A DNA stretch of 63,176 nt, filler included. It is 3 parts of 3 records of this genome, joined end to end, with 100 filler letters (N's around TTAATTAATTAA, not from the genome) between each part and the next. Parts side by side here need not be neighbours in the genome. Positions count along the whole stretch, not along the records: positions 1 to 26,975 come from SRR2962707_772; 2 more parts are not named here. One strand, given 5' to 3'. The translations under genes and the position numbers were made by a program. This document shows positions 1 to 55,620 of the stretch, piece by piece. The notes below the pieces were generated by a model that had not been told where the DNA came from, searched no databases, and saw only the letters and a program-made list of their open reading frames with translations. Numbering within the stretch: position 1 is the stretch's first letter; each line of letters opens with the position of its first letter.

Positions 1-282
1 CCTGTCTCAATCACGAATGGTTGCAACCTCTTAAAATAAATAAAAAAACATGATTGCATTCCAAGCAACGACACGCAAAAATGAAAACGGGCTGCTCTGC
101 TCTCCCACAACCCACCGGGTATTGGGCACGTTGCAACCAAGACGCAACCGTAAGCAAAACACGTTCAACAGGCAGCGCGAATAATTCAGGACGTATTGGA
201 AATTTCGCTATTCATATTATTTTAAAATCGATGAGAAACCCTTGGTGGTTTAATTTTGTGCGAGTCGCTTCAACATAGCACT

Positions 283-3200
283 CTACACGCGTTCAGTTGC
301 GGAGGCAGTCAATCCCTCTTCGTCCTTGGGAACGGCAGACTCCAACGTGACAAAGTTCGGGCGGCTGAACACCCCGTGTAGCGGCTCACAGTCGAAGTAC
401 CGTTTGCCTCCATTGATGACAGTGCCATCACAGCTTCCATCTGGATCATCAAGTTCAACTCCGACGTAAACGTCATCTGTCGGCAACTCGTCCAGCGGGC
501 CAATGTATCGAACAAAACCGTATTTGAACCCATCACACATAACACGGGAGCCAACTGTCATTGTGAATCCGTCCGCGTCCTTGGCCGTGACTGCGACTGG
601 CGTCTCGGGCTCAACGGTTTGCGCGGCAACTCGGGCTTGAAGTACCTCGACGGATTCACCCTGCGAGCTTTGCAGTTGCCTCTCTTCGCGATGCAATTTT
701 TCGGGAGATACCTTTTCAGAGTGTTTCCCTTCTGCGCGCACACCACGTCCACCACGCTTGTGACGCTTCGGCAGTTTCTCTGGCTCTTCGTCCACATCAT
801 TATCGCCTGATCGCGAATGCGGGCCAGCTTCCACGGAATGCCCAGGCTGCACCTTCGTTTTGGCCTGATTTTTCTTACGGAGGACAACAAGCACAACCAG
901 AACCACGATGACAACAACAGCCACTCCGGCAACAGAAGCCCCAACTGCAATGGCAGTTTGTTCACTTAGTTGTCCATCTGGGTTCTGGCTCAGGTCCGAA
1001 AATTCGGAGGAATTGCATTGCACAAGACCATCTCCTTCATAACCTTCAATGCAAGAGCACGAATAGCTGCCGACATCGTTGGTGCACACTGCGTTCTCAA
1101 CGCAGACATCAATGACGGAAGCACACTCGTCAACATCGTTCTCGCAGTGGCGGCCTGTGTACGTTGCCGGGCACACGCACACATAATCTGATACATCATC
1201 CACACAAGAGCTCTCATGTAGGCAAGGGTTTGATGCGCAATCGTCGATGTTGACGCATAGCCCATCCACCAGCTCAAAGCCTTCGTTGCACACACATGCA
1301 TAGCTTCCAAAGGTGTTATTGCACGAAGAGTTTGGAGTACACGAAAACAATGAATCGTCGACACATTCATCAACATCATCACTGCACGTCCGCCCATTCC
1401 ACGCTTCCGGGCAAGTGCAAGTGTATCCCAAATGTGCATCGGCGCAATCACCTCCATGCTCGCATGGAGAGGAGCCACACTCGTCAATTTCAACACACGC
1501 GCCGCCAATTAATTCGTAGCCGTCGTCACAAATACACTCATACGAGCCCATCGTGTTACTACATGTCGAGAACTGCATGCAAGAAAACAACGTCACGTCT
1601 GAGCATTCGTTTACGTCTGCTTCGCAGGTCAAACCAGTCCACTGTGGAGGGCATGCGCACGTGAACGCAAGATGCGCATCGGAGCAGCTGCCGCCATTGA
1701 GGCACGGGTCGGAGCCACACTCGTCGAAACTTTCGCACCGCTCATCCGCAGTGGAGTTGAAGAAGCCCTCGTCACAGTCACACTCGTATCCACCATAAGC
1801 ATTGATGCATGTGGCGTTTTCAGGACAATCAAAAGAAGTTCCAGTGCACTCGTCCACATCCTCAGCGCAGGTTTCGCCTGAAAACTTGGTCTCGTCGCAA
1901 GCGCATTCGTAGCCCAGGAGCAGATCAGTGCATGTGGCATCCCCGTAACACGGATTGCTCGCACAGTCGTCAATATCTGAGCAAGTGAAGCCATCGCCTT
2001 CGAATCCAGGATGGCACATGCAGTAAAAAGAGCCAATCGTGTTGGTGCAATTGGCATCGGGTGAGCAAGGGGAAGCCAAGCATTCATCAACATCCAAGTC
2101 ACAGTCCGACCCTGTGAAGTTGGCAGGACAGTTGCACGAGTAGCTGTTGATGGAATCGAAGCATACACCTCCATTTTGGCATGGCTCCACGGAACATTCG
2201 TCAATTTCCGAGCATTCAAACCCATCACCTGCAAATCCGTCAAGGCACTCGCACGCGAAAGAGCCATTGTGATTGGTGCACGTTGCGTTTTGGTGGCAGG
2301 GAGCATCCTCAAAACATTCGTCGACGTCTTGGTCACAGATTGCCCCTTCCCACTGGTTTGGACAAGCACAAGTGAAATTGTTGAACAAATCGGTGCAATT
2401 ACCACCATTTTGGCACGGATCAGCTGCACACTCGTCGATCTCCGAGCACACAACTCCATCCCCTTCGTAGCCAACGTTGCAGGCACATTCATAGCCTCCA
2501 TTCGTATTATTGCAATGTGCCAAGTACAAATGGCAAGGATAGCCGTCAAAGACACCAAAAGCACACTCATCAACATCGTCACTGCAATACTCTCCTTGGT
2601 ACTCTTCGATACAGTCGCACGTGTATCCCAGCACTGCATCCACGCACGTGCCGTGCATGCACGCGTTATCAGCACAATCATCAACATTCACCTCGCAAGT
2701 AGCGCCTTCGAACCCCGTATTTTCACAGTCACAGGAGAAGTTGCCGACAAGGTCGATGCAAGCACCGCCATTCAAGCAAGGGTTTTCAGCGCACTCATCA
2801 ATATCAACTGAGCAATCATCACCTTCGAAACCGGGCAAACAAGTACACTGTTGCCAGCAGTCCCCGGCCGAGCGGCAGGCGGAGTCGCAGTCAGACGTTG
2901 TGGTAATGTTGCATGACCCCATTCCGCCATTAGTCGCGCAGAAATCAACCTGTGAGCCACAGCGTTTGCCGTATAAGCCACCTCCACAGTCACACGAGAA
3001 GTCATTGACAACCGGGGTACTGCACGGACGCCCATTGAAGCAGGTGGCTTCGCCTTCCGTGATGAAGCCGACTTGGCATTCGTCAATGTCGACACACGTT
3101 TCACCGTCACCAGTGTATCCATCGCGGCACCTGCACGAAAAATTCCCGAATGAATTGGTGCAGCGGGCGTTGGCATCACATGAGTGCGTGCCAGTTGAGC

Positions 3201-6200
3201 ACTCATTGACGTCTGCGGAGCAATTTTTATTCTCAAACCCGTCGACGCATGTGCACGAGTAGTCGCCAATGGAATTCACACAGGTTGCACCGTTCTCGCA
3301 AAAGCCGAACTTGCAATTGTCGATGACGTCGCAGATGCTGGTGCGCCCAATGAAATTAAACACACATTCATAGCCGAAGTCAATCTGGCAGTTCGAGCAA
3401 CCATCCCCGTCCTCGTTGTTGCCGTCGTCGCATTCCTCGTCCGTAGTTCGTTGTCCGTTGCCGCAAATAAAAACGGGCTGAACATACTCAACTGATGAGG
3501 ACTGCTCAGCGTTGGGGTCATCCGAAGGCCCTTCGCCGGCGCTTACGTTGAAAACAGGCTGAGAAAATTTCGTTGTGGCAACGGAGTCAGGTTTGATGGG
3601 GTACCCCACGTCCATGGTGCCATTCCCAGCCGAGCCAACGAAGCCATCGAGGAACGAGGTCTTCCAACTTTCTTCTTCCGGGTCACTCGTTGTAGTTGGC
3701 GCAGCAGTTGACATGAGCATTGTCGATGGCACAAGAGTAGTGATATTGGAGTAGTTGTAGTTCAAGATAACGCGACTCTCGTTAGCCGGGTCCAAAACGT
3801 AAAAAGTCCCCTTTTCATCCAAAAACTGGCAAAACTCGCCACTCGACCCAATCTGGCACCGGCATGTTCCCTTCACACACACCCCAAAATTGTGGCAAAC
3901 CACATCGGCACACTGGTTCGGGGCGGCAATTTCAAACTGCAAGTCCGACTCATCAGTAACATTCCAACCAGAGCCGTTGGAGAGTCGACGCCGGTCGGCC
4001 TGCCCTTGCCCAGGAACAATGTTTGTCGTCTTGATGCGCTCCGGATTGATGAGCAGCACGGACGCCATATTTTCAACAAAGATGTCATCCTCAAAAAATT
4101 GCTCAACCGTCACCGCTACTGTCAGTGACACTCGAATCATTTCTGTTTGAATCATGTACAGAGGCGTTGAAGCGGACACGGTAACCAGAAGCATCTTTGA
4201 GATACGGTCGTAAAACCAAGTGCCGTGAGGTCGGCCAGGGTAGACAGTGTCTTTGTAGGCTTCCTCGAAGAGAGTTTCGCCTCCATGACCGTGCAAATTC
4301 ACCATGAAAGGCGTCGACAAGAAAATGCGCAAGACGACGCTCTGACCTTCCTTGATCCACGGTGCATGAATGGCCATTTCTTCCGGGGCAGTGCCTGTGA
4401 AATCGAGTCGATACTGCATTGAATTTTGCATGATAGTTCTGAAGATATTCTGGACTCCTGTAGCGGTCAGCTCAGTGCCAAGAGGCTCAGCGAGACCATT
4501 CAGGATATCAGTTGCAAACGGCCCTTCGTCGTCGTCGAGAAGCCCAATTTTGTCGCCAACCACTGTCACACCGAGCGGGCCAACTCGACGCTCTGCGTTC
4601 GAGCCGCCGTCAAACAGGTCAATCAACCACACATCAACATAATCCATTCCTGAACCGCAAATAATACCATTCTCGGTGAGATCGGAGTTGGAAGAACACT
4701 GGTCTCCGTTCCAATCGAACCCATCATTGTCTTGCAGAATGCCTTGTTCGTTCGGATTCCAGACTGCATGATCATAGATACGGGGCTGGTCTTTCATCCA
4801 CCAAAAGCACCCCTGTTGTTGTTGAGGGTTGGCTGATTGGCACGCGGAGGCCACAGTAGGATACCACGTCTGTTGATCGGGGATAAAGGTCACCATGTCA
4901 CCATCGCTGGCGCCACCATAAGTTAGCGTGCCATCGATGTCCTCGACGTAGCAGCGACTCCAGAAGTCGCAACGGAATTTGCCACACAACGTGTAGCCCA
5001 AAATCCCAGGCTCTTCCTCATAGCGCATCTTTGTGGCGTCCAAGGATGCTTGGTCGAGGTAGCGTGTGTTCTCGAAATATGCGGGAAAGCAGCCTCCTGG
5101 GTAGTCACCCATGGTTGTGACCATCGATGACCCGGAATTACCCATCCGACCGAAGACGATCCCAGTGGCGTCAATACGTGCAGCATGAAATCCTTCACGT
5201 GCTCTGTGTTTTTCAAGACCAGCTGACACATCTGACGGGTACAAGTTACCAAGAACTAAGGTGTTCTTGATGCTGCGCACAGTCGGGACCCGACTCATAT
5301 CACCGGTTCCGGTATTTTCGTAATGCCAATCAGGAGTAACTCGCTGCGCCCGCTCGCACTTGGAATCAGCGGCAAACTGTACAGCCAGATTATTCGCAGC
5401 AAATACAGTGCCGTCAAAAGTAGGCTCAGCAAAGAAGTTGAAAAAGGCGCCCACGTTATTGCCCCACGCAACGTCGTTGTAGACGTGCGCTGTATTTTGG
5501 TATGAAAACCCAAACAACGAACAAGTTCCCGTGTTACGGTCCACGTTGCGGCCAGTTTTACCCGCAAAGAGGAAGCCAAAGTTGGTGGATCCAGCGGCAT
5601 AGTTATCTTGGATCTTGGCGCCAGAGGTCATTTGAAGGAAGTTAAAAATACCTTCCGGCTCCAGCAAATCAAAATCTTTGACATCTTGGTCAACGCCCAT
5701 GTTGTGAACGACGTCTCCGACTTGTCGGCCTTCGTACTTCCATGCCCACATGGTGTGCGCAACGTTGTGCTTCCAAGTGTGGGCGCTGAGACCTTCCAAA
5801 CCGTCAATAGGACCCACTTCGCCGCCTGCCAGCCCACCACGGAAAGAGCAATTTGAGACTTCGATTGGATCAGCAATGTACAGTTCTTTCACTGGGCACC
5901 CTGGGTCCCGGGTCGGGTTGGTGCACATAGTCATACTGGACTCCACAAACAAAGGCTCAACATTGCGCTTGCCCCAGCGCCGGATTTCCACATTCGTGAG
6001 CTTGACACTTGCATGCGCATAACGGAAAAAGCCTCGGCCTTCAATGTACCAGTCGCGAGTTCGCCCAGTCACATGGCTATTGTCGATCTCAGTCGGGCCA
6101 ACCACGATTGTCACGCCATACTTGCGGCCAAGAGTCTGCAGTTGAGACACAATACGAACATTATGTGACAGGAGACCAACGGCAACTCGCAGATCCACAA

Positions 6201-9200
6201 ATTCAACATGCGAGCTGTTAAACTCGGACGTAATGGTTTGAGCTTCCCCAACTCGGTTGTATTCGAGCGGCTCGTTGAACGAAACGACCTTGCGATCTTC
6301 CGAGACCTCCGTAATGGTACGAATTTCGAATGTGTCTTTTTCCCAGCAAGCAACGTCTGGGCTATTGCCATTTGCCAGCAAGATGTCGTCTCCGACCTCC
6401 CAAGACACCGGCGATTCTAGGGTGATGGACGTGTCTCCGATAAAAGAATTTGCGCCCAAGTACAGCCACGACTCAGCCGTATCCTTACCAAACAGATGGA
6501 GGTCACCATGCACATTGATGACCTGATCACCTGTTGTGTCGACGTCTAAAAGCTCGGTCTCGCCAAATTCGTTCGTAACCTCAACGGCTCCATCGGCGCC
6601 CAACATATTGATAGTTGCGTCGTTCAAATACGGGTGGCTCGCGTTTCCTGCGCGAATGGCACCGCCGTAAACGTTCAAAACTCCAACATTCAGTGCAGGC
6701 TTCGCCAGGAACCACTGGCAGCCGGAGATTGCTTCACAACTGAAGCGGTTGGTGCCATCAGAACAGACGGAAGCATCTAACTCATCATCAGCATCGTCAG
6801 CGATGGTGCAATTGGGCACTGGATTCCAGAACTCGAACGTTCCCTTCACAGACAGAGAGGCTAAGTTCGCAGTTTCGACGTCAAGAATCACATGCCATTT
6901 GCTTGGAATGGTGATGTCCTCGCCGTCGACGGGCACACCATGGTGGTAGTTGTTCTGCTGCCAAGCGGAGTCGTCTGACCAAAAGAAGACGGACGGGTTC
7001 ACGAACGGCTCCCACTCGCCCGAGGCCGGACAACCCTCGCGAGGGCATTTGTCAGCAGGGCCAATCACAGAGTGTGTGTCGCGGAACGCAGAGAGAGTTG
7101 CCCACGCTCCAGTACTGCCAATGTCATTGACAGTATCGTTGTTGAAAGGAATGAAACGAAGATGCTGATCCTGAGGACCATTCATGGCGCTGCCAAAGTA
7201 AATTTGGTCCAAGCCGCCAGAGATGCTATTCTTGATGTTGGTGACGTTCACTGCCACTTGTCGGGAAGAGGCGTCCATCTCGGCCATGGCCAATCCGTCA
7301 GCCACGAATGCAACATACAACTCAACCGCTTCAGTCGCATTGCCAACCCTCTGAGCCTCGTCCGGGTTGCTAGGGTCCGAGCACATAAAACTTGCACAGC
7401 GAGCGAGGCCCCAAAAGCTCTCAGAGACTTGCAGTGCGATAGGCGTGAATCCCTCAACTTTTGACGTTGTTGCAGGGTTGTTCAATTGAGTCCAGACGTT
7501 TGCAGGAGCGCCTTCTCGATCTACATATACCATCTTGAGCATGTAACTTCGGTCTGAGTTTCGCCCTCCTTCCTCAAGGAGTGCCACGTCAGCGAACGCA
7601 TCACGCTTAGGGTTGTTTTGCATGTATTCAGCTTGCATAACAGGTTCCAAAGCTGTCTCACGGAAAATGCGAACCCACCGTGCTGGCGGGATCGTCAACA
7701 GCTGGGAGACACTGTCGACTTTGCTTCGGCATTTTGCATCCAGCTCCACGTGCAGTGCAGCAGCTTGCGTTTCAGCCATGCAAACCACTTCGTCACCAAC
7801 CACCGGCGTGCATTCTTCGCCGCTGAAAGCACCCGCATCGATGGCACTCATGCAGGTGAAGCAGTCGTCGATATCAACACATTCACGATTTAAAACGGTA
7901 CGCGCAGCTGTGGCGCGCTTGCCGGAAATTTTGTAGTCGCTGGTGACTCGATTGTCAAATGCATCCAGCATCTTAAGGTTGCAATCAGCACTTAGCGTGT
8001 CGTAGGTCCATAGCATGCAGCCGAAAAAGTTTGTGCACATGTCACAGCATTCAGCGGCATCGGCGACGTTGGCAACTTCCATCAAGTCGTATCCCATGTA
8101 ATCGACGGCCATCTCGCCTTCGCAGGCTCCAATTTGGTCGGGGGGAGTAACTGCAGTTAGCGACTCAAATTGCAGCATGAGTTCGACGTTCGAGTGGGTG
8201 GCAGGGATCTGCTGACGCCAGGCTGCTGCAGCATTCTCGGCGTTCAAATGGCGCGAATGCACCCGGAAGTCGTCCAACTCCATGGCGGTCGCCATTAGTT
8301 CCCATGCGACAACTGTCGAGCCCGCACCTCCAACACGAGCAGTTACAACAGTGTCCAACGGAGCTACAAAAGGCGATGGCCTTTCAACCAAGTTTGGCTG
8401 GGGGAGAGAGTTGTAGAACACGTCCAGTTTCTCGTTACTACTGTCGTAAGCAGCCACCACGTGCACCCACTGGCCGATTGGCAACGGTGGCGCAACGAAG
8501 GACGACGTCGGTTCGTAGATATAGTCAAGTTTCATCCCAGTGACATTGACGGTCCCGAAAAATATTTGCGTTCCATCCAAGACGGAGAGAACGCAATCAG
8601 TGTAATCTTCGGAGGTAATCTCGAACTCTAACGATACCGTCTGCCATGCGCCGGCTTCGACCAAGTCACTCAGAGTCTGCGATGTCGTGATAGTAGCTGC
8701 CAGCCCAGCTGATGTGTACAGTTCGATCGCAAGAACCGGCACCGCGTCAGTTTCGGTGGCATCCAGTTGACTATCAGCGTTGACCAGTACCGTGGCAACA
8801 TATTGTCCCGGAAGACTCTGGAAATTCGAGGCTTTAACCCGGTACTCAACTTCATCGGTTTCCGCGGTGAAAGAATCAAACATGACGCATGAGTATGAAT
8901 CGTTTACTCCATCAAATGTCAAACCATGGCATTGGTCGGCAATCACACCCACGAGACTAGCCCCGCGTCCAGTGTAGACATCGTCAAACGCCAAAACATC
9001 AATGGTAACAGCATTTTGAATTGGGTCAGCACCATCATTAACAAGGTCAACCCGAAGCTCGCCACCAGAGTAAGGCTGTGTGCATGCCTTCGGTTGCGAC
9101 AGCGGGTTCCAGATCAGGGCATCGCTGCAGTCGTCGGCTGTACACGACGTGTCAACATAATCGCCTGAAAAAATCTCACTGTAAAGGTCTTCGGCAGGGC

Positions 9201-12200
9201 AGAAATGATGCTGTGCCTGGGACACAAAGTTAATCGTAGAAGCTCCTCCATGGAGACTTGCAACATGGGTTTCAGCACCGTGATCACGCCCACCCATGCG
9301 CACCCAGAAATCGACAGACCAATCAGCTCCAAGCGCCACATCCCCTGTTACAATCGAAGCTTCAGCTTCTGCACCATTAAAAGCCGCAACTCCTGTTCCA
9401 GATTTAGGATACTTTTCCTCCGAAATGTCATAAGCCCCGTCGTGAACGGCGGCACCATATGATGACGACCTTGGGACACGGGCGTAGCATCCTGACGGTA
9501 CAATGTGAGTCGCAGCGCCATCATAGCAACATCCGAGGGCCTCCTCGCACGTGATAGGATTCACACCTTCCCACGCGCAATCAACGACCTCCCCCTCAGC
9601 AAGGGCAAGGCCAATGTCACAAATATCAGCCGTTGCTGACTTGATGTGATTAATTTGAGCGGCACCCGTGTCGTCAGGGAAATTTGTGTACTCGAGAGTG
9701 AGGAACAAAGGCGCAGCATCCGGCCCGACAGGGACAGGGAAGGAGTCCCCTGGCCCGTTGTCGCCCATTGTGTAGCGCACTTCCTGTGCCAACTCTTCGG
9801 CCTCCGTCAGGGTAGCGTCTTCCCATTTAAACTTGATGCCCATTTCTTTGCCAACAGGCATGACAGTTGTCCAGAAATTTTGCGGATTCTGACAAATTCC
9901 CGTCATGTACCACGGATCCGTAACATTCGTCTCCATGTCCCGAATCTGAAGCATGTGTCCTTGTTCGTGAAGCACACTGTGGCCAAAAACAACACGTTGG
10001 AACTCGTGAGTGCATGCAGCAACGTCCCCCAGCCCGGATAAGTCGCTGGGCCCCATACAGGCGGGGTCAGCCTCGCGAATCGGCGATGAGCCAACGATAT
10101 CTACCTTGATGCCTGCACCTGACACTGAACCATCAAGATCCTTGATGATGGCACGATGCGCCTCCCCAAACTTGTTGAAGCCGCCCACGCGATGATCCAC
10201 GTTAAAAACAGACATCCCACTCATGACAATGTGGTGAGACGATCGACCGTGATCACTCCACGTGCAGCAGCCAACAGCCGTGGCAAAGTTGACAGCTGTG
10301 AAGTTTTCAACAACCATGCCGCCCTTATTACCGGATATAAGAATTCCGGCAGGATTTTCCTCGTCCATTCCCGTCGTCTGAAATTTGTTTGTGAGACGGA
10401 AGAACTCAATATGACGAATCCCAACGAGGTTGCTGCCGCACGTCGCCGGCTGGCTTGAACCGGGCACGTACGGCGAGTTCGGACAGTTACCTGCCTCTGA
10501 ATCAAACGACTCGGTCAGTTTAACTGCGATAAAGCGGGCGTGCCTCCCATAGAGGTCAATTTCCACCGCGTCCGTGTAATTATCGTCACCGGGACCTGCA
10601 GGCATTGTGGCCGTGATGAATTCCTCGGAGTACCCTTCAGCGTTGAAGGGGCGCCCAGGTTCGTTTGCGTCTGCCCACCCGAAATAAATTTCGACTTCTG
10701 CTGCCCCGTTACCGGGGTGATCGGCATCGTTGTAATTCCACAGCTTCATGTATGACAGATCAATGCCTGACTTGAGATCCATGGTCATCCACGCGACGTC
10801 GGTAAACTCCTCACGGTCGTACGCGCAGGCAGTTCCAGTTTCCATACCAACGCAGGCAAATGTTGTGCGGGCTGTTGCATTAGATCCGAACGTGTCGATC
10901 AAATACTGAACCTCCCAATCGGACGACGCAATGCAAACAAGATTGGCATCGCAATGACCAGCAACTGATCTGTTCACCAGCGCTTTGTGTGTGGTGGTCC
11001 AGCCACGGCCAGTCTGGTTGCCATCGCATGCCTTCAAACGGGCGTCACCGACGACATCAGGGACAGTCCAGCGGCAGTTCTGCTGAAGGGCATTACCAAC
11101 CGAGTTGTTGGCAAGACTGCTCGCATACGAGTCAGCACGGCCTTCAAAAGACATGACGTTGAAAAACTTTGTGTGCAATGTCGCATTGTTGGGCGTGATG
11201 CCTACTGTGAGAGCATTGCTGATCACCATACCATCTCCGTAAGCCCAATATTCGAAGGCGGCGTTTCGTGAATCCAAGAAGCGGAAATTCTCAAGCGTGA
11301 CATGCGAAAGTGTGTCACAAACGTCGCCGTCTGTGCACGACATCCACATTCCAGCCATGGACTGTTTCCATCCAAGGAAACCGTCGAAAATGGCCTGCAC
11401 AGGAGTCACTGACTTGCAATAGAACCCGTCCAGGCGGGGCGTCATGTCTTGCAGCTTCAGACCATACATTCCTGTCGAGTGGCCGATATTGTTGGAGAAA
11501 GCACCAAGTGGAACCTCGTCAGGGCAATACAAACTTGTTTCCGACAAGCCGTCAGGGTGATCCAACGGACGATACCAGAACCCGAAGTGCGAACTCCCAG
11601 CGGCAACATTGTTGCGCAAATAGTTGCCTGGATTAACAACCCAGTAACTGGCCGGCGTCTGGTCGACAGTCAACAGCGAAAACAGTGGTTGCGTTAGCAC
11701 TGCTAGGTTCCCCTGAATGACGTTGCCCATCTCAACACCATCTTCCAAGAAAAATGTTTGGCCTCGAATGTCATAAACGACATTATTCTCCAACAACACA
11801 TCCGACACACCATGGACAGCCACCGCGCGGTTGAAAGAGTGATGGATGGCACACTTTTTGACATAAGAACCTTCAACAGAACCAACCATGTGGTAGTGCA
11901 CAGCATAGCGCCCCAAGAAAAAACCTTGGCCGGCATCTCTGACTTCGACATTGGACAGTCGGCCAAACAGGGTTTGGTCGCCAGCGGAGTGCATGAAAAT
12001 CGTGGCGCCAAACTGAATATCGGTGGTTTGATCGTCACCTCGAACAACGACATTGCGTGTCAACAAACCAACTTCAGCAGACATTTCGGGCATCTCCAAC
12101 CCGTCGTGGGGTGTTCCAGGAGCGATAACAGTGTACCCTGCTCCCCAGTGGTCGTAGTACAGCGCCTCTGTGAGGTGGATGCGGCTGCCATCGTGTGTCA

Positions 12201-15200
12201 CTTTGCCGATGGTGCGATACTCGGCTTCGTTGTAGAAGTAATCAGTTGGAGCAATCACAATTTCATCACCTACGACCCAGTCAGTTGCATCTTGCAAGTC
12301 AATGAATGTTGCTCCTTTCGGTGCGCTTGCAGTGAGGCGAGTCCAGGTCACGTTGCGGTCCGTTCCATGCAGATCGAGCTCCGCATGGCGGACACCAAGC
12401 ACCTTGGCTCCGTAGATTGGAATCTCGTGGATACGACGGTTGCCCTCAAGTGTAATCGTAGCACGGTGCAGGAATGGCTGATCGGCTGTCCCGACTTGGA
12501 ACTTGGCAAGACGTGAGCCATCTTCATTGCCCTTGACCATGATGTAAGTTGCATTTAATTCCAAGTCAAGCTCGTCAAGGAAAATCAGCGAGCCTTGCAC
12601 AATGAGCAAGTGGAGAGACGGACTGTTCATATTGTATAACACAACATCTGTTTCACCAATTGCCACAGAGTCGCCCTGTTGGGGTGGGTCGTCATACCCC
12701 CACGTCGTGACAGCCGACCAGCGGTCGCCATACGTAAATTTGTCTTCGCAGCGAGCGTAGCCCTTTCCTGCCACTTGCACATGGAGGTCAGTGTTAAGCA
12801 GCGGTCGATCCTCCACTGCAATAGGGTTCGTCAAGCAAGTGATCTCGGTATCAGAGGCACCAAGCCCTGTACAGTCCACCCCAAACTGCTCGTTCGTGCC
12901 CCAGTCGCACAGATTGATGCCACGGTATTCACCTATGTCCGCGGTGTTGTAGGCGCAAATTGTTCCACCAATGGTGACCACAGGATCGGCGCCAAAGTCG
13001 GTGCCGACGATGACAATCTTGGCGCCACCCGCAGTGGACGAAATGTCGGGAGTAAAGCTCGTGACCACAGGAGTCAAAGCAGCGCTATACTCAAACACAC
13101 CTTGGGCACCAATGGGGGACGTGAACCAAATGTTCGGATCAACTTCAACCGTGAGTTGATCTTGCGCATCGTCGACCGCAAAGAACACACCCGGTGCAGT
13201 CGTGGATCCAGATCCAATGGTGTCTTCGCCCAAAAAACTTGGTGTGGTATAAAATATTGACGTCGTGGACAGCCGGTCCGGCACCTCCGTTGAGCAAACG
13301 CCTGCATGAGCAAGACGGTAATCATTCAAGGAGTCAAACCCATGATTTGCGTCATTTAGGTTATCCAGTATTGCCACGGAGGCACCGCACGTAATTAGTT
13401 GAGTAGCCAGGGCCTCGGTAACGCTCCAATACCAATCACCTCTCGACACGATGAGGGCCAGTTCGTTTGGACCCAGAGCACTCAAGAACGCGGCCATTTC
13501 ATCCGCCTCGGCTGCAGAAGTTCCTGTCTCGAAAGTCCGCATCGCATTGGAAAGTCCGAAGAAGTCAAGATCTAAAGTTGCAACGGACAAACCGTCACTG
13601 ACAGTAAACAAGAGATCCACTTCCTCTCCTGTGCGTGGATCGTTGTAGTACACGCGAGAGTATGATTCGTCGCTCCCGCTCGACAACATTAACTTTGGGC
13701 GTCCCGTTACTGAATTAAACACCTGCACGTCGGCAACATATTCGCCAGCCTTTGAGGGGCCAGTGGTGCAAACAATCTCATCGTAGCTGGATGTCTCCAC
13801 TGCGCATGGAGTTGACCCAACGGTGACCTTTGTGGTGTTGCTGAAACCCCATCCCGATACCGTCACAATTCGTCCGCCTGCAAGCGACCCACTTGAGGGT
13901 GAAACGCTTGTCACATTGCCAAGAGATGAGAATACAGGCAACATATATCCTGGCTTGGGCCCAAGCGCTGTACCCTGACTGGTTGACGTTGTGAATACGT
14001 TGTAGTGCCCGCGCGCAAGCTGCGGGGAGTCGCACACAACTTCAACGGCATCACCCACGGATGTGACCGACGTCACCGGACAGTTGGCGTGGCCAATCGC
14101 GACACTATAGTGGGTTGCATCCGTGTCAGCATTGTCGCTGAGCGTGATAGTGACTTTACTCCCAGCAATAGCACCTGGGCCAGTGGCCAGGCTGGACACA
14201 CAACAAGCTGCTACGGCTGTGGCTGCGTCATCTGCTGACAAGCAGCCTTCGGTTCCTGTGTCAGTGTCCACAGTCAGTAAACCGTCTGCGCAGACAGTCC
14301 GAGTCCACACAACTGCGCCAGCAAGATCATCATTGACAAGCACGCCGTCAGTGATCTGATGCACAGAGCACACATCGGCCCCCACACTGGAACAGTTGCT
14401 TTGCGCTGACGCGAAGTCAACATGGGTCAACGACGTAATCTGCCCGCACGCAGGAGATGTCTTGGACACTGGCCAGCCTAGGCCAGCGCAGGAGGCTGGA
14501 GATTCACCCAAAGAACCACTAACGTCGATTCCTTGCACCACAGCAACATTTTCGTTATTCCATGCGACTCCGAAAACAGTGACAGCGACAATATCGCCTG
14601 TGGCCTTGCTCGAGATTTCGACGGCAACTTCATCGAAAGTGAGTGAGTCGTACTCGCAGTACACGGTGCTGTCTGGAACCGCAACAAGGGAGTAGCCTGG
14701 GTTTGTGTTAGTGTTTTGACTTGGCGCAAAAAGAGAGCAAGTGCTCAATCCAGTATCCCAAGAAAGAGAGTTGCACGACGCTACCCCATCGCACGCGTTT
14801 TGACAGTCAACAAGCGACATCACTCCAGAAACAGTGGACACAGTGCCTCCACTCCATGACAGGCCATCTTGGCACGTAAAGTCCGTTGGGCGAGGGCGCC
14901 GGCTCGAAGTGCAGTTGATACTTCCTGGCGCGTGACCTGTGACTTCGCACACACTCTGGCCGAGGAAGTCGACAACACGGATACTGTAGGCTTCGGCTTC
15001 CCCAAAGCCTTCGCCAACAAGGGCAAGATCCACTCCTCCCTCCAGTCCAAGCTCAACGCACGCTTCGCCGGGAAAGCAGTCAGCACCGTTTACAGCTGCA
15101 ACGGCAGTTTTGAATTCAAAAGCGGACGGGCCGTCTCGAGTTCCCCATTCACGGCCGAAAGCAGAGACTTCGCAAATATACAAATACTGGTATCCGGGCA

Positions 15201-18200
15201 CCACTAGAGTGATGAACTTGCCGACAGCTCCACCACCACAAGATACTTCAAGCAAGTCGTTTGAAACAAACTCGGTATGCTCGACGTCTGTGCCGCACTC
15301 CGTCATGCCGCTTTCATTTTCAAACGTTCCAGTATTGCCACCAATCTCACTTCCGGGCGCTTCTTCAGACACAAACACCTTGAAACCGGATAAGTGAGCT
15401 TCGTACCCGTTCCAAGCGGCAATTTGAATAGTGTGGATCTCCTCAACGCTGCCCAACTCAACAACAACATGTGCAGACGTTGCAGTTGTAAATGACGACG
15501 TATGCCATTGCGTGCAATAGTAGCTGTTGCTGTACCCAACAGTGTCCGTGAGCTTCTGCAATTCCCCCTCAATGTCACCCGAAATTAGAGTAACCGCTGT
15601 GTCAGAGCCAACCACGCTGCCGGCTGCGTCGTATGTGTCAACTGTGTTTTCCTTCGGGCCAAACACTTTGGCGCGGGCAGCTAGGTTTGTGGGATCCACA
15701 AACGTATGGTCAGCATGACCAAAGCCAGGCGTTGTTAATTGAATTTCGCCATGCCCAATTCCTGCAGGCACGTCGCAGCGAATTTCAGTTTCAGACTCGA
15801 AAGAAACAGAGCAAGCCACATCGCCAATTCGGACTAGGTTTCCGCTGTCGGCGAAGTTGGTGCCAACCAGCACAAGCGTGGTGTCAACTCCGCCAGCAAG
15901 AGTGCGACTCTGGGCTGTGTTGGACACGCAGAGATACATCTCCGTGCCCAACAGCGTGTTTTGGTTCAGGTTTCCATCGAGATACATCTGGGTCGCACCA
16001 AGGCCACCTCGCAAGCCCCGACCGGAAAACTCGGATGGGCAAGCAGATTCATCACTCAAGTAAAGGCTCGTAACGGGAACATCACTGTCGCTTCCGTATG
16101 ACACGCAAAGGGAAATCGCCGTGCCAGACCCTGATGTAACGGCGTTGAAATTCGGGTTAGTCATATTCAACAGTTGGATCGGTTCCGCGTCGCCTTCACA
16201 TTGCACCGCATTGGAGATGATTGATCCGGACAGGTGGAGCCCTGTCACAAACGTCGAGGCACCAACATCAGCAAGTTTGGCGCATAGCACAACGGGCGAG
16301 ATTGCATGAATGGAACCCTGGTTAACGTTGCCACTCAAAGAGGAATGGTGATCAATGAGTGTGAACCCGTGCACATCACAGTCTTTTGACGAGGAGGCAA
16401 GGGCAACATCGACAATCACTTGAGCCGTGGTGGCGAGTTGTCGACGGCCAGCCGATGCCGTTGTAACAACCATTTCAGCAGCCGTTGCCACAGAGTCCCC
16501 GGTGGTGTCTCCAACCGCAGCAACGGATGTGCGAGCAGCATCAGTGGTAACTGGATACCGGACGGACTCGGTTTGAGAGAATGTTGCCTCGCCAGACACT
16601 TCCAGCCGAGATTCCCAAGCAGAAACTCCAATCTCTCCGGCAAGAGTATTCGCGGCCACGGACACGGTTGTGTTCAGCGGCGGCACCGTGGTTGTCGGTG
16701 GGGGTGTTGGGGCCGCAGTTGTGGTTGTAGTGGACGTCGTAGTGATGGCTGGAGCGGTTGAGTGGATTGGCGCTGCGGTGGACACGGCAGCACTATCAGT
16801 CGCAGAAAAAGTAGCAAGACGCCGTCTGGAGGCAGGCAGGCACCGCCCGCAGGTCACAGCACAGCCGTCAGCAATTTCAGCCGCGCCACAATCAGCGCCA
16901 CCCTCAATCAAGATGTTGCAGTAGTTGTCATCGCCATTGTCAACGTCCAAGAAATTTTCACAATCGCCACCAAAAGTCGTTGTAGTCGATGGTTCGATGG
17001 TGCTGAAAGCTCCAAAGCTTTCCACATACCCGGCAGCTACAGCAGGTCCATGGCCAGCAGCAACTAATACTTCAAAAGAAGCTGACACGCTGAACATGTC
17101 CAGGCCCAGGAATCGGCGGGCAGAGCTGGCTTTGCAAATCGAGTGATAGTTGACGTATCCATTCGCGTTCTCGCTGTACCCAGCAGTGTTCGTTAGCGAC
17201 ACTTGTTGACGAAGCCGCAAGAACTTGTTGGAACCATCGGCGTTGTTGGTAAAGTAATAGCACCCGAACGGTGCGGACGTGTACTCGTAATTTTGCGAAG
17301 TGGATACATTGGCTTCGAGCGAATACCCAACATGCTCAGCAGCTGCTTCACATTCGGCCAGTGATACAATGGCCTCGTATGGGCCGAAGTCCTCGCAGAC
17401 CCCCTCTGAAATCTCAATGTACTCGCAGACAGCTGAGGCGCTACCGCAGCGTGAACCACCACAATCCACCCCAAGTTCATCATAGTTCTGCACCTCGTCG
17501 CTGCAAGATGCTCGCACGTTGCATGAGTAGGGGGATGATCCGGACGTTGAAGTGCCCTCAATTGCAAGTGAATCGCTGAAATAGCGAACGCAGCGGCCAT
17601 AGGTATTTTCGCGAAAGTCTGGGGCAGCTTTGCAACACACTTCATCCGCCACCTTGCCTCCTTGCGGAACAAGGTCGTAATTTCGGAGGCGACCAAACCA
17701 TCCATATTGGTGATAGTCTTCGCACGAGTGGCCGTTGACGTCTTGCCAATCATCCACTGCGTCAACGCAGGGGGCAGGGAGGCATACGTCGGACAAAGGG
17801 TCAGAGGCAAAAGAGTAACCTTGGCAGGTTCCATCGCAAGCAGCAGAACACTCTTCCTCCGTGTCAACGCATGAAGCCACCCACTCAAGTTCGGAAGCGC
17901 TTGCACCATCAACATTGCGGCAAAAGCCGCGCCCAATTGAAACAAACTCGATGGGGAGGTACGTGACGGTGAAGTCCGGATGATAATGGGCACTTTCGCA
18001 GTCACTGTAACCGCAGTCATAGCAAATGCGGCAATCGGCGTCCCCATCGTGAGCGAACGCAGAGCATGATTCTTGCACACCGGCATGATGGGAAGACAAG
18101 CAGAGGGCCTCGCAGGTCGCAGCATCTGCCGTCACTTTGTCGCCGACTGTGCCACATCGTGTCGAGCCGCGACTAAACCATGTTGAAGAATTCTGTAGGT

Positions 18201-21200
18201 CAACAGCAACGCGAGGCACGGTTGGCGGAGGCACAGGCAATGTCTCCAGGCCAGAAATATCCAAATTCACAATAGAACTTTCCGCCGAGTCGGTGAGCTG
18301 TGCGATTGTACGGCGAATGCCGCGTGCAACAGTTTCTGCGTCCCAACCTAAGCTGCTGGCGTCGGCGTAAAAGCTGAAACTGCCTGCCACCACGTCATAC
18401 TCGGCTGCGAACTTTCCAGCGACACTGTTGGCGTCAACATTGGTGCACGTTTGCTGTACCTGGAACTCCCACAATTGACTGGTGTTCAACGATACCTTCG
18501 TGCGACATCGAGTCGCAGTCTCCGATGGAATTTCCGGGCACATGGCGATGGGCTCCGACAGTGCGTTGCCACTACCATCGATTTCGACACCTGTGACTCT
18601 CCACGCAGCATGCTGGCAGTCGTTTCGGTCCCCAGCTTCCCATTCGATGACAACTTTCCCGTCCCGACCAACACTGTTGACATACATGGATGCATTTTGA
18701 TGTGCACGCCCATATACGATGACAGGGTAGCGAGTAGCGCGACCGATTTGTGGGAACTCGGTCTGCGTGTTTCCAAAAGTTCCAGAATAAACGCGAACGG
18801 TTCCACAACTCACGGAATACTGGCTCTTGGCGCCTGACACACCCAATCCAGATACGGTGTCAACGCTGCTGGTTTGTTCCTCGTTGTTGAAAGTAAAGCC
18901 CCAGCGAACGTTGAAAATCTGACTATCGGCCTGAAAGTTTGTGGCAAAATAGCCAACGCCCGTTTGGTAATAGTTGTACTTGCCATTAAAATAGTCCTCG
19001 TTGAAAGCGTATGGCCCACTAAATGTTTGCTCGGAGGAAAAGAAATCGATTGCATTTTGGCTGTCCACTTGCACCTGCCAGTTGGCAGGGCCATAAGTGA
19101 AACCTACAAACCGAGCGGCGTATTCGGTGAAAGCAACTTCGTTGTACGGCCAGTACTTTGCGTCGCCGCGGTGTTGTTCAACGTTCTCGGAGAGATCGTG
19201 TCCATTTACTGTGTTAGTTGTAGTCCATGCATCAGAAGAATACGAAAACGCGGTGTCATGTCCATCCATTTTCATGATCATGGTCCAACGACCACGCGAG
19301 AACTCGTTGTTGCAAAAGAACGATCGGCCGGCGCCATCTTGGTAAATTCCTGAGCCTTGATCGCTTGTCAAATCGTCGCACGCAGTCTCGGATGACGATG
19401 TGAAAGTCACAGCAGAAGGGCGTCCGGCAGGAGTCGCAGCTGTCAGCGCAGCTTCGGCGCCCGAGGAGAATGCCGGAAAAGAATTTGCCCCCGGATTAGT
19501 GCAGACTTCGGCGACGAAAAAAGTGTAGGAAGCGCCAGAGTGTAGACCCGTGGCGATGCAGGAGGTGCTGCTGCGGTCGGTGAGCTCGTGAGCCGTGCAC
19601 CCTTCTGGTGTGGAGAAAACGCCATACTCAAAACGCTCAATGTCGAAATTCCATTTGTAACTTTGGACTTGCACGTCCCAGTGCGCAAAAGTGCAGTCAT
19701 TGGAAGTTGCACCTGCACTCCAGTCGAGGCGGATAGAATCTTGGCTGTTGAGTCCTGTTGCAACCAGACCAGTTGGACTCTCTGCTGGCATTGAAATGGA
19801 ACCTTCGTTGAAGGCGAGATAAATGCTTGGTGTTCGTGCATTTTGATATTCCACGAAGTCCGCGCTATAATATGCAACCTTATCGTTTCTGAACTGAACA
19901 GTCCATGCGTACTCTGCCTCGGGACGGGCTGGAAGCTGGCACTCCAAATCGGCATCAGCGGCCCCTTCATGCAAACTAGAGCTGGCCACAACACACGGGT
20001 GGTCGTTGAGATCAAATTCGAGTTCTCGAAGACGAATTCCCTCGTTCCATCCGCCGCCAATGTAGGACGAATAGTATGTTGACGCCGTGGCTGCCCCTCG
20101 GATATCAAACTTGAGTTCGTTGAATGCTGGAGAGCTCTCCGGCAAATCATAGTGCACCGTTGCAAGGTAGGAGCATGAGGCACCTGTTACTGTGTGCACG
20201 ATGACCCAGTCTTTGTCCGCATCTTCGATTGCAATACCATTTGCGTCCACGACGGGCCCCACATTCACGCTGATAATCCAGTCACTAGGGCAATCTGAAA
20301 TGTCGGTGGTCAACGAATATCCAGTCATGACCTGGGGAGCACTGTAACCAACGATAATCTGTGTTGTAGGGTACTCAGCAGATAACCAGGCGGTTCCAAT
20401 GTCACCATCGAAAAGTCGGGAAATATCCCAACTCGAGGACCAAATGGAGGCAGAGTAACTTTTTGAAACAGACGCAGCGCTGAAGGTGTCGTTGAGGCTG
20501 CGAGTCATGTTCGTCACGGGCTCAAGGGACACAGTGGGGAAACAGCACTTCTCCCACAGGCTAACGTAGTGACCATTCTCGTCTCCGCAAGAGAACTCAC
20601 CGGTGTCACCTCCTACACATGCGGCATCGCAGTTCAGCTCATCCACAGCAGTGAACTCTTGACCAAAACTGTAACAGTGGCAGGTATCTCCATTGGCCAG
20701 TCCAAAGAACTGAAAGTTTGTACAGTGGTCTCGGCAATCGCTTGTGGTCATGTTGAAATATGGTCCAAAAGTGGTTTCCGGCTCGAGGTCCACATTTTGC
20801 ACACAACCAAGCGAGAGAGGGGTTTGGTCCACGGCGATGTATCCATTCAACCCAATACCAGCCACATTAGCGATGGCCCCTCCGTTAACGCCGCTGGCAA
20901 TTCCGCTCGCTTGGACCTTTGGAAAGACAAGCACTTCAAACAATTGGGAGCTGCCGTAGTAACCATGGCTCAGAACAAGAGGCGCAACGCCATAGGAGAT
21001 CATGGGAATCTCGAGGACCACTTCGTTCGCAGAAACAGAGAGTAGCGCTGCATTGTAGCCGTTTACAGACGCTGAAATGCAAAAGCCAGTGGTGGCATCA
21101 AGACAACCACTCGAGGAATCATCATCATACAACACCCCTGCAACTGAAATGGTCACTGTCTCGCCCGGTGCTACATGCGGGACAACAGACTCGGAGACGG

Positions 21201-24200
21201 TCAAATTGGGCGAGCCGACGATGTAATTGATGTGTGGCCCTAGAGAGGAGCTGAAGGTGTAGTTTCCGGGAGTGGGGGTTGAAGTCCCATCTTGTCTGCA
21301 GAATGCAATGTTTGAGCAATCAACGAAAACCGAAACGTCAACGGACTCGTCTCCATCGCCATCATTGCGTCCAACACGGCAGGTGATGTTTGTCGGATTT
21401 GCTTCGATGATTTCACACGCGCGGTCCCCAACGGTGACCGAATTGTGGGACGAGTACTGGGAGAAGCCATGACCCTGGATCGTAATGACGTTGCCACCAC
21501 CTTGTGATCCACTGCTTGGCACAATTGAGCTGATGACAGGTCCGACGTCAGCGACAATCGATACACGGGCAAACCCTTTGCCGTGAACATACACGTGAAT
21601 GGGGTACACTCCAACCTGCAGATCGTCAGCGGTGCACACCACGAAGTCATCTCCGGAAGCGACTGGGCGGTCCGTGCGAGAGTCGTAGTCAGCATTAGGG
21701 GCAACCCCCCAGTACTGATTGATCCCACGGCCATCCTCTGTAGTCACGTCGCCCAGATAGCAGAGCGTGCTTCCCCAGATCAACGAGTAGTCCACCTCTC
21801 CAAACCAAACAGTGACATTGGGAACGCGCTGGTAGAAACCCCATTTGTCCATGTACATATTGTCGTCGGTGATTTCAGTTGCGTTAAGGTTGGTTCCTGT
21901 GAGTCGCAGGGGAACCCCGGACGAAACAGCTCCAGAAATACCGTCGATGGTCGGTGTTGCACTCTCGGCAAACGAGAACTGGTCTACTGCAGTGTGCGAT
22001 ATGTTGTTCACTGTCACCACAATGTCGGCCGTCATCTCACTTTCGCCGGAGGTTCCATTTGCAATGACACACTCAAGCACAGTCTCGTTCGAGAAGTCGA
22101 ATACGCGACCATAGTGGCGCTCAGCAGCTGAGCTGTAGCCGTACACATAGTCAACATCGCAGTTCACGAATCCCTCGTACTTGATTCCGTCGCAGTGACA
22201 GTTGTCAACCAAACGAGGCAAGCACTCAATACCTCCAACAGTAACGGTGTTATCAATGCCCAGAAGCCCAAAACCATGCCCTGTGATCGTGAGGACGGTG
22301 CCGCCGAGAACGGAGCCTTGGGTTGGGAAAACACTGTCGACAGCGAGAGTCGCGGTAAACTCGGCGTCGTCAACAAAGAAAGCGTTTCCAACAGCAGTGC
22401 GCAATTCAATTTTATGGACTCCTGCTGGTGTGGGGCCCAATGTGCATCTCAACGAGTTCGTTGACAGGTCGGCAATGTCGCACAGGGCACCACCAATGCG
22501 CACTTCAGCGATGATTTCGCTGTCATCAGTGAGCTTTCCCTTCGCGTCGACGTTGGAAAACATCCACGCGAGGTCGAATTTGTGCAAAGCGAGCCTCAGC
22601 TCGGTTCCTTCTTGCCCGGACGTGGGTGACGAAGGGTGCATTTCTGCAACCGGGGTCAGCTCTGGATCCGGACTAAAGGTGCAGAGGTCTGTGTCTTCGC
22701 ACATTCCAAGCACATTATTGCTGGAAACAATAACCTGCGGTGTCGTTGCGACAAGCCGCAACGCCTCGGCCATGACGGGTTCGTCACTCCACACAAACAG
22801 TGATGCTGACACGGAGTGCACAAGTGCACCACTGCAGTCACTGAGAACCGCGAAGCCAGCTTCAGACGCATCCAAGCACCCGCCAACGGCAGGCAGACGA
22901 ATCACACCTTGCAAGTACTCGAACACTTGAAACTTGTCACTGGGGTCGCAATCAACAATGTCAAGGAAGTCGGTGTCGATATTGAAGTGAAGGCACTTAT
23001 GAAATAGGCCGTTGGCCACGGCACCCGTAGCCTCGTCGAAAGCCCAATTCTGCGCCGCGTAGCCGCTTGTGCAGGTACCGTACACGGCACGGGATCCGCT
23101 AGGTGACGTTGAAAGGCAGCCCGATGCAGTTGGCAAGGGCAAATACAGCCATGACGAAAGACTGGTGAGCTCGTTCGCAACGAGGGACACTGTTAACGTT
23201 GCTCCCTCCAGGTCTTGCCAATAGATGACGTTTACGAGCAAAAGATCGTTCGCACGTGCTGTGAAAGTGTTTGAGGACCCAGCCTGTCCCTCGACCACGT
23301 AATCAAAGTTAACGTTCCCGACGCCAAACGCTGCGCTCACGTCACCACTCACCGTGATCACATGCGGCAAGTCGCCGACAGCGTTGATCGTGTAGGTTCC
23401 ATTTGCAGGGACACGCAACGCACCTGTGTACATGCGGGCGGAGGGTTCCAGCGGCTCAAACCCACCATTCAGAATATCGACGGAAACACCATCCTCAACA
23501 TCTACCACGCGTTGGTGCTTGACATGGAAGGACATCTCGTGTCCCTGCGCAGCGGCGCCATTGAAGCTAAGAGCCGCCGCAATGTCCTGCATCGCTGGCC
23601 CGCTGTACGCATAATGCTGTCGGATTTGCCCGTCCACCACCTCGTGGATGGCAATGTTGGCAAGTTGCAGAAACGAACCGGAGCTCATGAAACACAAGCG
23701 GTCAGTGAGAGCGCGTGCCTGAAGGAAGCCGTCAAAATTAGCGGCAATGGCGCCGTCCGCGCTGGAGGCAGGCACAATTGCTTCGCGGTCGGCGTGCTCG
23801 ATGGCTTGATACGTGAACTTGAAATAAGTGGTGGCCAGTGCAAGCTCCTTGTCCGAGAGGGTGTCACCGTAAACAAGCACTTCACCGATTTCGACGTCAC
23901 TGTTGAACTCAACTCCACCACCGCAAGCACAGCATGCCTCAGCCATGCTCTTGCCACCGGAGCCAGCATCAGCTGCGAATAATTCTTCGCAAATTGTCAT
24001 GTTACTTGCAGCCTGCGAGCAGGTAGCTCCATGAGCAAAAGTTTCCGCGTAGTCCTCGCATTCCAGGCCATTCACACGGAGGTTATCGAAGGGAAACGCA
24101 ATGTCTTTCGCCACCTCGACACCATCCCAAAAGATGGTGACTGCTCCAGCAGAGTCACGTGACAACGCAATTGCATGGAAAGCATTGTCGGCAGGAAGCG

Positions 24201-26806: not shown

Positions 26807-26915
26807 TAATGACAACAGCACACTCACGCACATGCCCACGCTAGCGCGTAGGCACACGCCTTCTCTTCACAAAGAAAGAACAGCACTGGACTCAAGATGC
26901 CGGCCTCCAAGCTCC

Positions 26916-26975
26916 AGAGAGAGAGAGGGAGAGAGAGTGCGTGCGCTCGCGAGAGAGAGAGAGAGAGAGAGAGAG
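26916..26975. repeat. (GA)n microsatellite at the contig end
   Basis: Interrupted AG/GA dinucleotide run ending in a pure (GA)n at 26951-26975, directly against the N linker. Typical of a eukaryotic assembly break. Confidence 0.9.
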
Positions 26976-27075
26976 NNNNNNNNNNNNNNNNNNNNNNNNN
27001 NNNNNNNNNNNNNNNNNNNTTAATTAATTAANNNNNNNNNNNNNNNNNNNNNNNNNNNNNNNNNNNNNNNNNNNN
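26976..27075. other. Artificial contig linker
   Basis: 44 N + TTAATTAATTAA (stops in all six frames) + 44 N; identical to the second linker. Confidence 0.97.
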
Positions 27076-55520: not shown

Positions 55521-55620
55521 NNNNNNNNNNNNNNNNNNNNNNNNNNNNNNNNNNNNNNNNNNNNTTAATTAATTAANNNNNNNNNNNNNNNNNNNNNNNN
55601 NNNNNNNNNNNNNNNNNNNN
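55521..55620. other. Artificial contig linker
   Basis: 44 N + TTAATTAATTAA + 44 N. Confidence 0.97.

Follow-up and report, generated by a model that had tools for sequence, protein, structure and literature searches.

The stretch of DNA considered here (the window, 63,176 nucleotides with its filler) carries the gene of a marine microbial eukaryote for a giant, fibrocystin-like surface receptor, the predicted cytoplasmic tail of which ends in a CAP-Gly domain. CAP-Gly domains are known as soluble modules that read the tail code of tyrosinated tubulin and of EB proteins. In this receptor one such domain stands behind the transmembrane helix of an adhesion-type ectodomain, has hardly changed between species that are saturated at synonymous sites, and has had its canonical ligand pocket replaced. 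The combination is real and conserved, and apparently undescribed. We lean, with some reserve, towards reading the tail as a flexible tether that presents a selected CAP-Gly docking module with a changed ligand. A type I giant surface protein would then hold outside the membrane its TIG repeats, lectin-type modules, fibrocystin-L-like core (G8 and beta-helix) and EGF array, while inside the cell a disordered, rapidly evolving tether of ~100 residues would be followed by the CAP-Gly domain, well folded, and by a short end peptide. Tethered to the membrane, the domain would dock peptides and in this way bring a specific cytosolic partner to the receptor. What it captures would most likely still be the partner's C-terminal peptide, and that partner would probably not be the acidic EEY/F tail, of alpha-tubulin or of EB proteins, that is usual for such domains.

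The tail domain is a genuine CAP-Gly domain, far beyond chance. The Pfam profile CAP_GLY (PF01302) matches residues 156-222 of the 245-residue C-terminal piece of the protein (355..555; all receptor features lie on the minus strand) with 67.5 bits (E 9.6e-19), against a gathering cut-off of 26.5 bits, and the match spans positions 1-63 of the 65 in the profile. Within longer pieces the domain scores 62.8-65.4 bits. A phmmer search of Protein Data Bank (PDB) sequences returned 32 distinct sequences at E<=0.001, all CAP-Gly proteins, headed by the first CAP-Gly domain of CLIP-170 (2e3i, E 5.1e-13). The fold was modelled with AlphaFold2 for the 198-residue tail, using a 27-row alignment; block means of the predicted local distance difference test (pLDDT) are 89-97 for the CAP-Gly domain and about 50-65 for the ~100 residues ahead of it. 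When the model was compared with the PDB by Foldseek, all matches at E<=0.001, among those listed, were CAP-Gly domains, and the first domain of CLIP-170 was matched with target TM-scores of 0.90-0.92 and a root-mean-square deviation (rmsd) of 1.1-1.3 Å (3rdv_D, 0.92 and 1.1 Å). Glycines G157, G168, G174, G187, G195, G199 and G216 occupy columns that are glycine in 362-480 of 491 relatives. An earlier sequence-only reading had proposed a CAP-Gly domain at 350-556 and had staked it on a profile or structural match; the Pfam score it called for was obtained, the confident model and the CLIP-170 match agree with it, and the tail peptide that it quoted does lie at the end of the minus-strand frame.

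That reading had also claimed that the GKNDG loop is changed to GSCDG. In the phmmer alignment GSCDG (424..438) falls column for column on the GKNDG of 2e3i, with two extra residues (I-N) after the motif, so that the claim holds. The typical loop, GKNDG or GKHDG, is thus missing from this domain. Membership in the family stands in spite of this because of the profile score and the fold, the motif being typical of CAP-Gly domains and not strictly defining.

The gene for the receptor is an intronless coding sequence at 283..26313 (ATG at 26311-26313, stop at 283-285) encoding 8,676 amino acids. It lies in an open frame of 8,690 codons that runs uninterrupted from a TTG at 26355 (283-26355), the first ATG being codon 15. 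When the whole frame was scanned with Pfam, first as two pieces and later as ten, the order from the N-terminal start was TIG/IPT repeats with Ricin-B, WSC and PAN modules; next a G8 domain with a CEMIP-type beta-helix, the fibrocystin-L-like core (11461..12705; beta-helix 171-176 bits); then Trefoil, Laminin-G and a second G8 domain; and finally a cysteine-rich DUF4215 repeat, an array of EGF and calcium-binding EGF domains, the transmembrane helix and the tail. There are at least nine TIG stretches over the scanned pieces, and two G8 domains. The EGF array (1021..3318; Pfam and motif count) extends over ~765 residues and has ten D/N-x-D/N-E-C signatures. The ectodomain comprises ~8,400 residues and the cytoplasmic tail 198. 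The tail consists of a linker of ~100 residues (556..879), which is predicted to be disordered (pLDDT 50-65), evolves fast and shows in-frame insertions and deletions (indels) in relatives; the CAP-Gly domain; and 23 variable C-terminal residues (286..354), the last of which is Val in each end of a relative that was seen.

By hydropathy scan, the 8,690-residue frame has only two strongly hydrophobic segments: an N-terminal one resembling a signal peptide (26242..26313, frame residues 15-38; residues 14-35 in the scan) and a single predicted transmembrane helix (880..957, frame residues 8465-8498, mean Kyte-Doolittle 3.39). There are 342 Cys residues and 68 N-x-S/T sequons N-terminal of this helix, versus three and none, respectively, in the tail. 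The net charge of its flanks is -4 on the outer and +5 on the inner side (RKKNQAKTK). A signal peptide, one transmembrane segment, the division of Cys and sequons and a positive-inside flank, the marks of a type I protein as read from hydropathy and charge, lead us to infer that the receptor is N-out and C-in and that its CAP-Gly domain is cytoplasmic. A transmembrane segment at about 880-955 and a CAP-Gly domain in the cytoplasmic tail of a single-pass receptor were indeed what had been predicted from the letters.

The fusion of receptor and CAP-Gly domain could have been produced by misassembly or by reading through two genes, and the window does consist of contigs concatenated by artificial linkers. 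Such an artefact is highly improbable. The whole gene lies in one stop-free frame of the first contig (window 1-26975, SRR2962707_772), and the junction is covered by other sequences. Public contigs were compared over window 1-4000, where the run with the best DNA match (X1) is a possible source of the window and is not counted as independent. A 26,331-letter contig from run X2, of the same organism in another study, covers 206-4000 with zero differences. A 1,162-letter contig from run X5, of a related organism, extends over 255-1385, from the CAP-Gly domain through the linker and transmembrane helix into the EGF array, and differs from the window at 154 positions, with indels in the linker. 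An independent ortholog (L001) was found in a seawater metagenome with the region before the EGF array as query. Its open frame, of at least 5,054 amino acids, runs off the start of its contig and has the order PAN, TIG, G8, beta-helix, Trefoil, LamG, G8, EGF, transmembrane helix, linker and CAP-Gly (62.5 bits). Since the order EGF, transmembrane helix, linker and CAP-Gly is common to X2, X5 and L001, the fusion is real and no assembly artefact.

The X2 contig has its first base at position 206; given collinearity along its whole length, its end would be at ~26536 and it would hold the open reading frame (ORF) with ~80 and 220 flanking bases. This size fits a full-length unspliced transcript, the RNA label of X2 being only a guess. 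In L001 a 766-residue ORF without a Pfam match (16298-18598, plus strand) lies 1.1 kb downstream of the receptor ortholog; any counterpart is outside the reach of the window contig, which ends earlier.

A search of representative proteins with the tail gave 2,169 proteins at E<=0.001, and among the best 150 listed the top matches were two fragments, P0001 (64% identity) and P0002 (80%). GSCDG is present in all five orthologous sequences, namely the window, P0001, P0002, L001 and the X5 contig. In a metagenome scan with the tail alignment, none of 326 pattern matches was a relative. A word-index search with the full-length protein, scored over residues 8420-8690, gave nothing among 705 candidates of 4,779-15,208 amino acids, a search for longer relatives with the 245-residue tail gave only two animal CLIP-like proteins, and the ESM Atlas gave no usable match.

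Comparison of the orthologs shows where the tail has been held constant. Over 289-616 the X5 contig has 39 differences among those listed, 34 of them at third codon positions, touching 37 codons; 35 of these 37 codon changes are synonymous, and the other two, A146V and K232R, fall beyond the limits of the Pfam match. Within GSCDG, the Gly, the Cys and the Asp codon have one synonymous change each. In the comparison with L001, saturation at synonymous sites extends over all segments (proportion of synonymous differences, pS, 0.77-0.89, with the exception of the last 16 codons). The CAP-Gly domain is nevertheless identical at 54 of 67 residues (81%), with a proportion of nonsynonymous differences (pN) of 0.115. 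The EGF and pre-transmembrane segment has 39 of 74 residues identical (pN 0.30) and the transmembrane helix 13 of 26 (pN 0.29). In the linker only 25 of 83 are identical (30%), plus 15 gapped (pN 0.53), and at the C-terminal end 4 of 16 (pN 0.49). These counts point to strong purifying selection on the CAP-Gly domain, which by this measure is under tighter constraint than any other part of the last 300 residues, and suggest that the linker behaves as a length-variable tether. A basic cluster in the linker, KLPKRHKRGGRG (net +7, p150Glued-like), was considered as a second microtubule-binding patch and dropped, L001 being without such a cluster.

The domain that has been kept so constant does not have the pocket of its relatives. 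Altogether 491 CAP-Gly instances were collected from the best 150 of the 2,169 representatives, with a hidden Markov model built from the first matches; tail residues are numbered within the 245-residue C-terminal piece. Column 178, usually F (404/491), is E in the window, with L179 adjoining; column 185, usually W (317/491), is Y; column 196, usually K (280/491), is S; and column 197, usually N (292/491) or H (141/491), is C. Serine occurs in the K column in 11 of the 491 instances and cysteine in the N/H column in 5. The canonical quartet F-W-K-N/H is found in 234 instances, and the quartet E-Y-S-C in two, both of them the ortholog fragments P0001 and P0002. These fragments are also among the five instances that have a two-residue insertion after the motif. 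The scaffold columns are kept: the glycines, V160, L190, D191, D198-G199, V201, Y208-F209, C211 and F218. The charge is changed as well. The net charge over the Pfam match is -6, which is reached or passed by 11 of 447 instances (44 of the 491, shorter than 55 residues, were dropped from this count), and 216 canonical domains have a mean of +0.64 and a minimum of -3. A groove of Phe, Trp, Lys and Asn/His in a basic surface, as in canonical EEY/F-binding CAP-Gly domains, is thus absent. The domain has kept its glycine and hydrophobic scaffold, and the residues that form the EEY/F pocket have been replaced (Phe by Glu/Leu, Trp by Tyr, Lys by Ser and Asn by Cys).

The only other GSCDG among the 491 domains is at residues 402-472 of a three-CAP-Gly protein of the sponge Ephydatia muelleri (P0059). 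This domain keeps the canonical Phe and Trp, and the S-C loop has therefore arisen at least twice.

The importance of the replaced residues can be judged from studies of the canonical groove. In a structural study of Trypanosoma brucei TBC-B (TbTBC-B), the motif is described as almost always GKNDG, its Asn being able to hydrogen-bond peptides ending in EE[Y/F]; substitution of the Lys or the Asn by Ala is deleterious for binding, and substitution of Asn by His is tolerated (PMC3806363). TbTBC-B itself, with GKGDG, gave no heat change with the peptide EDVEEY in isothermal titration calorimetry (PMC3806363). A conserved basic groove adjoins GKNDG, and mutants of the K98E-N99D and K252E-N253D type are described (PMC9062740); a KIF13B preprint restates EEY/F recognition by CAP-Gly domains. 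Set beside these accounts, the GSCDG domain has lost the residues that read the carboxylate and the acidic tail, and has part of the hydrophobic floor left.

The sequence-only reading had offered two meanings for the changed loop, a direct membrane-to-microtubule link or an altered ligand specificity. The first would have the CAP-Gly domain still capture the EEY/F tail of alpha-tubulin or of an EB protein. The fold is intact, the domain retains several basic residues and some of its hydrophobic floor, and the nearest relatives in sequence are the microtubule-binding domains of CLIP-170 and CLIP-115; moreover, the GKGDG variant held an EVF tail in its crystal (PMC3806363). Such a linker is conceivable, and we think it rather unlikely. 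K and N are both replaced, where Ala in place of either is deleterious for binding (PMC3806363) and where charge reversal of the pair is a standard loss-of-function tool (PMC9062740). The Phe and Trp columns are changed too, and a net charge of -6 would face an acidic ligand, where canonical domains never go under -3. The evidence leans to the second meaning: an altered specificity is favoured because the Phe and Trp columns are changed besides Lys and Asn, and because of the two-residue insertion and the acidic charge.

Several points weigh against a changed ligand on a cytoplasmic docking module. V201, Y208-F209 and F218 are kept and match the hydrophobic floor described for TbTBC-B (PMC3806363); D198-G199, K206, R207, H215 and R220 are also kept. 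With these pocket elements in place, the domain could still bind an aromatic or hydrophobic residue at the end of a peptide. The altered motif of TbTBC-B did not prevent an EVF tail from being held in its crystal, with the terminal aromatic residue placed on Leu180, Val201 and Phe216 (PMC3806363). The net charge of -6 refers to the whole domain and not to the groove, the synonymous count from X5 (35/37) covers the best-supported differences listed, and the topology is taken from hydropathy and the positive-inside rule.

The end of the tail suggests another possible ligand. The final residue is Val in the window (286-288, ...ERV), in L001 (15161-15163, ...LHV) and in P0001 (...SAV), and the residues before it have diverged. 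A terminal Val could signal C-terminal recognition, for example by a PDZ-type partner or by the groove of the CAP-Gly domain itself. In the latter case the groove would hold the receptor's own C-terminal peptide, either in cis, in an autoinhibited state, or in trans, with clustering of receptors. The Val has persisted in all three ends in spite of the divergence ahead of it (4/16 identical, window versus L001). The idea is modelled on CLIP-170 and TbTBC-B, which bind C-terminal tails of their own kind, and in the TbTBC-B crystal the protein's own C-terminus lies in the groove of a neighbour (PMC3806363). Self-binding is nonetheless improbable, as there are three C-termini only, which are kin by descent, and the residues ahead of the Val fit no single motif. 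A tethered docking module for a changed ligand is the reading that we retain.

CAP-Gly domains are normally found in soluble proteins, as the sequence-only reading had stated. This holds for known, characterised proteins and in the literature searched, and not for the sequence databases. A hydropathy scan of the best 150 of the 2,169 representatives flagged ten proteins, of which P0017, P0040 and P0049 have a hydrophobic segment upstream of CAP-Gly. P0040, from the foraminifer Nonionella stella (EukProt), begins with a Cys-rich part, which is followed by a hydrophobic segment at 341-372 and by four CAP-Gly domains; in P0049 four CAP-Gly domains are combined with an SRCR domain, a module of ectodomain type, and three hydrophobic segments. 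Both likely pair transmembrane segments with CAP-Gly domains C-terminal of them. They are unlike the receptor in having four CAP-Gly domains each, mostly with K-N/H type motifs, and unrelated ectodomains. Three others (P0062, P0131 and P0137) were rejected as membrane CAP-Gly proteins, their hydrophobic segments being C-terminal ones in animal CLIP1 models or fragments.

The motifs of P0040 (GKHNG, GQNDG and GKNNG) and P0049 (GKNDG and GKNNG) are canonical or nearly so, which lends some support to a link between receptor and microtubules; on this evidence the coupling of receptors to CAP-Gly domains may be a wider theme. It is a tentative thought, and on the doubtful side, that some protists wire receptors to the tubulin cytoskeleton, or to a tail-bearing adaptor, via CAP-Gly tails. 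Within such a class, equally tentative, the fibrocystin-like giant would be the lineage with a derived pocket, and P0040 and P0049 would be other lineages.

Large arrays of CAP-Gly domains were also seen among the representatives. P0003 (Reticulomyxa filosa) has 16 CAP-Gly stretches in 2,604 amino acids, and P0007 has 13 with three C-terminal hydrophobic segments. Many of the domains in these arrays (P0003, P0004 and P0007) have non-canonical motifs and a strongly acidic charge. No paper that treats CAP-Gly together with Reticulomyxa was found in the full-text literature searched.

In that literature, which has subscription journals outside its coverage, no description of a transmembrane receptor that ends in a CAP-Gly domain was found, nor any relevant paper on CAP-Gly with fibrocystin, a co-mention being unrelated to judge by its title and abstract. 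A CAP-Gly domain on a fibrocystin-like receptor combines known kinds and is not categorically new, and surface proteins of protists often combine domains in new ways, which limits the significance of this case. Its meaning depends on the ligand. If tubulin or EB proteins are still bound, the receptor would by itself bridge the cell surface and the microtubules. Otherwise its tail would be a natural CAP-Gly domain retargeted to a new C-terminal ligand, and would help to define specificity in this fold. If the protist class is true, it would represent an undescribed route of outside-in coupling, in logic comparable to the links between integrin and actin, and would tie a fibrocystin-type ectodomain directly to microtubule-related machinery. 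The ectodomain adds interest in that the tails of the animal relatives are poorly understood.

The setting of the gene requires a comment. At least three contigs have been joined to form the window, with artificial joints at 26976-27075 and 55521-55620, each consisting of 44 N, TTAATTAATTAA and 44 N. Past 27 kb the ORFs are those of bacteria, with a methyl-accepting chemotaxis protein, TRAP DctM, DUF1631, a ParA-like ATPase and a luciferase-like monooxygenase among their products. The assembly is a mix of a eukaryote and a bacterium, the first contig being eukaryote-like and the other two carrying bacterial genes. A eukaryote-like gene within a bacterium, as the bacterial ORFs nearby might suggest, was rejected: the artificial joints separate the contigs, so that the receptor gene sits on a contig of its own, apart from the bacterial ORFs. 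The contigs joined after it are treated as unrelated to the receptor gene.

Both ends of the receptor contig have repetitive features. A (CT)n microsatellite and CT-rich tract occupies window 26900-26975, at the contig end ~600 bases upstream of the start codon. At the other end, window 1-30 has a word depth of ~5,000-7,000 in both X1 and X2, where the receptor gene has 40-70, and of 108 against ~3 in run X3, and other contigs diverge from the window sequence after base 30; window 1-30 is thus a high-copy sequence at the contig end. An Rfam search of window 1-27000 gave no match.

Known systems resemble the receptor in parts. The CAP-Gly domains of CLIP-170 and CLIP-115 (2e3i, 2e3h, 3rdv and 2cp2) are the best matches to the tail domain (E 5e-13, 40-46% identity, rmsd 1.1-1.3 Å), and share with it a scaffold of glycines, the D-G of the motif, Y-F-x-C and G-x-F. 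CLIPs are soluble and carry their CAP-Gly domains in tandem, together with a coiled coil and zinc knuckles. The receptor, in contrast, has a single CAP-Gly domain after a transmembrane helix, with an altered pocket, a two-residue insertion and an acidic charge; Pfam scans gave no CLIP1_ZNF match in the protein and one CAP-Gly stretch, which sets it outside the CLIP family.

CLIPR-59 (CLIP3), whose domains are among the PDB matches (1whh and 2cp0), is a CAP-Gly protein sited at membranes. Its attachment is through lipid modification of a soluble protein and, unlike the receptor, it is not a transmembrane receptor with an ectodomain. The CAP-Gly domain of TbTBC-B (4b6m, rmsd 1.2 Å) comes closer in its pocket: the third motif position is altered (GKGDG) and Leu stands for Phe. 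It differs in keeping the Lys and the Trp and in belonging to a soluble tubulin cofactor (PMC3806363). CYLD offers CAP-Gly folds that serve partners other than tubulin tails (1ixd and 7owc, the latter titled 'CYLD CAP-Gly3 bound to Ub'), and its second CAP-Gly domain is bound by InlC (PMC13623971). The CYLD matches are weaker (rmsd 3.0-3.4 Å, 25-29% identity), and CYLD is a soluble deubiquitinase.

For the ectodomain the comparison is with fibrocystin-L (PKHD1L1) and fibrocystin (PKHD1), which have in common with the receptor a giant single-pass form, TIG/IPT repeats, G8 domains and a parallel beta-helix. A search with the G8/beta-helix piece, the only piece of the ectodomain so searched, gave 744 proteins at E<=1e-10, among them an unnamed fragment (P0153) at 79% identity; the nearest named proteins are animal fibrocystin-L, which align along roughly half of the query with 33-43% identity. 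The receptor differs from the fibrocystins in adding Ricin-B, WSC, PAN, Trefoil and Laminin-G modules and a long EGF array, which argues for a relative of fibrocystin-L rather than an ortholog. Animal fibrocystins have, to our knowledge, short tails without a recognised domain. The animal relatives act at microtubule-based organelles.

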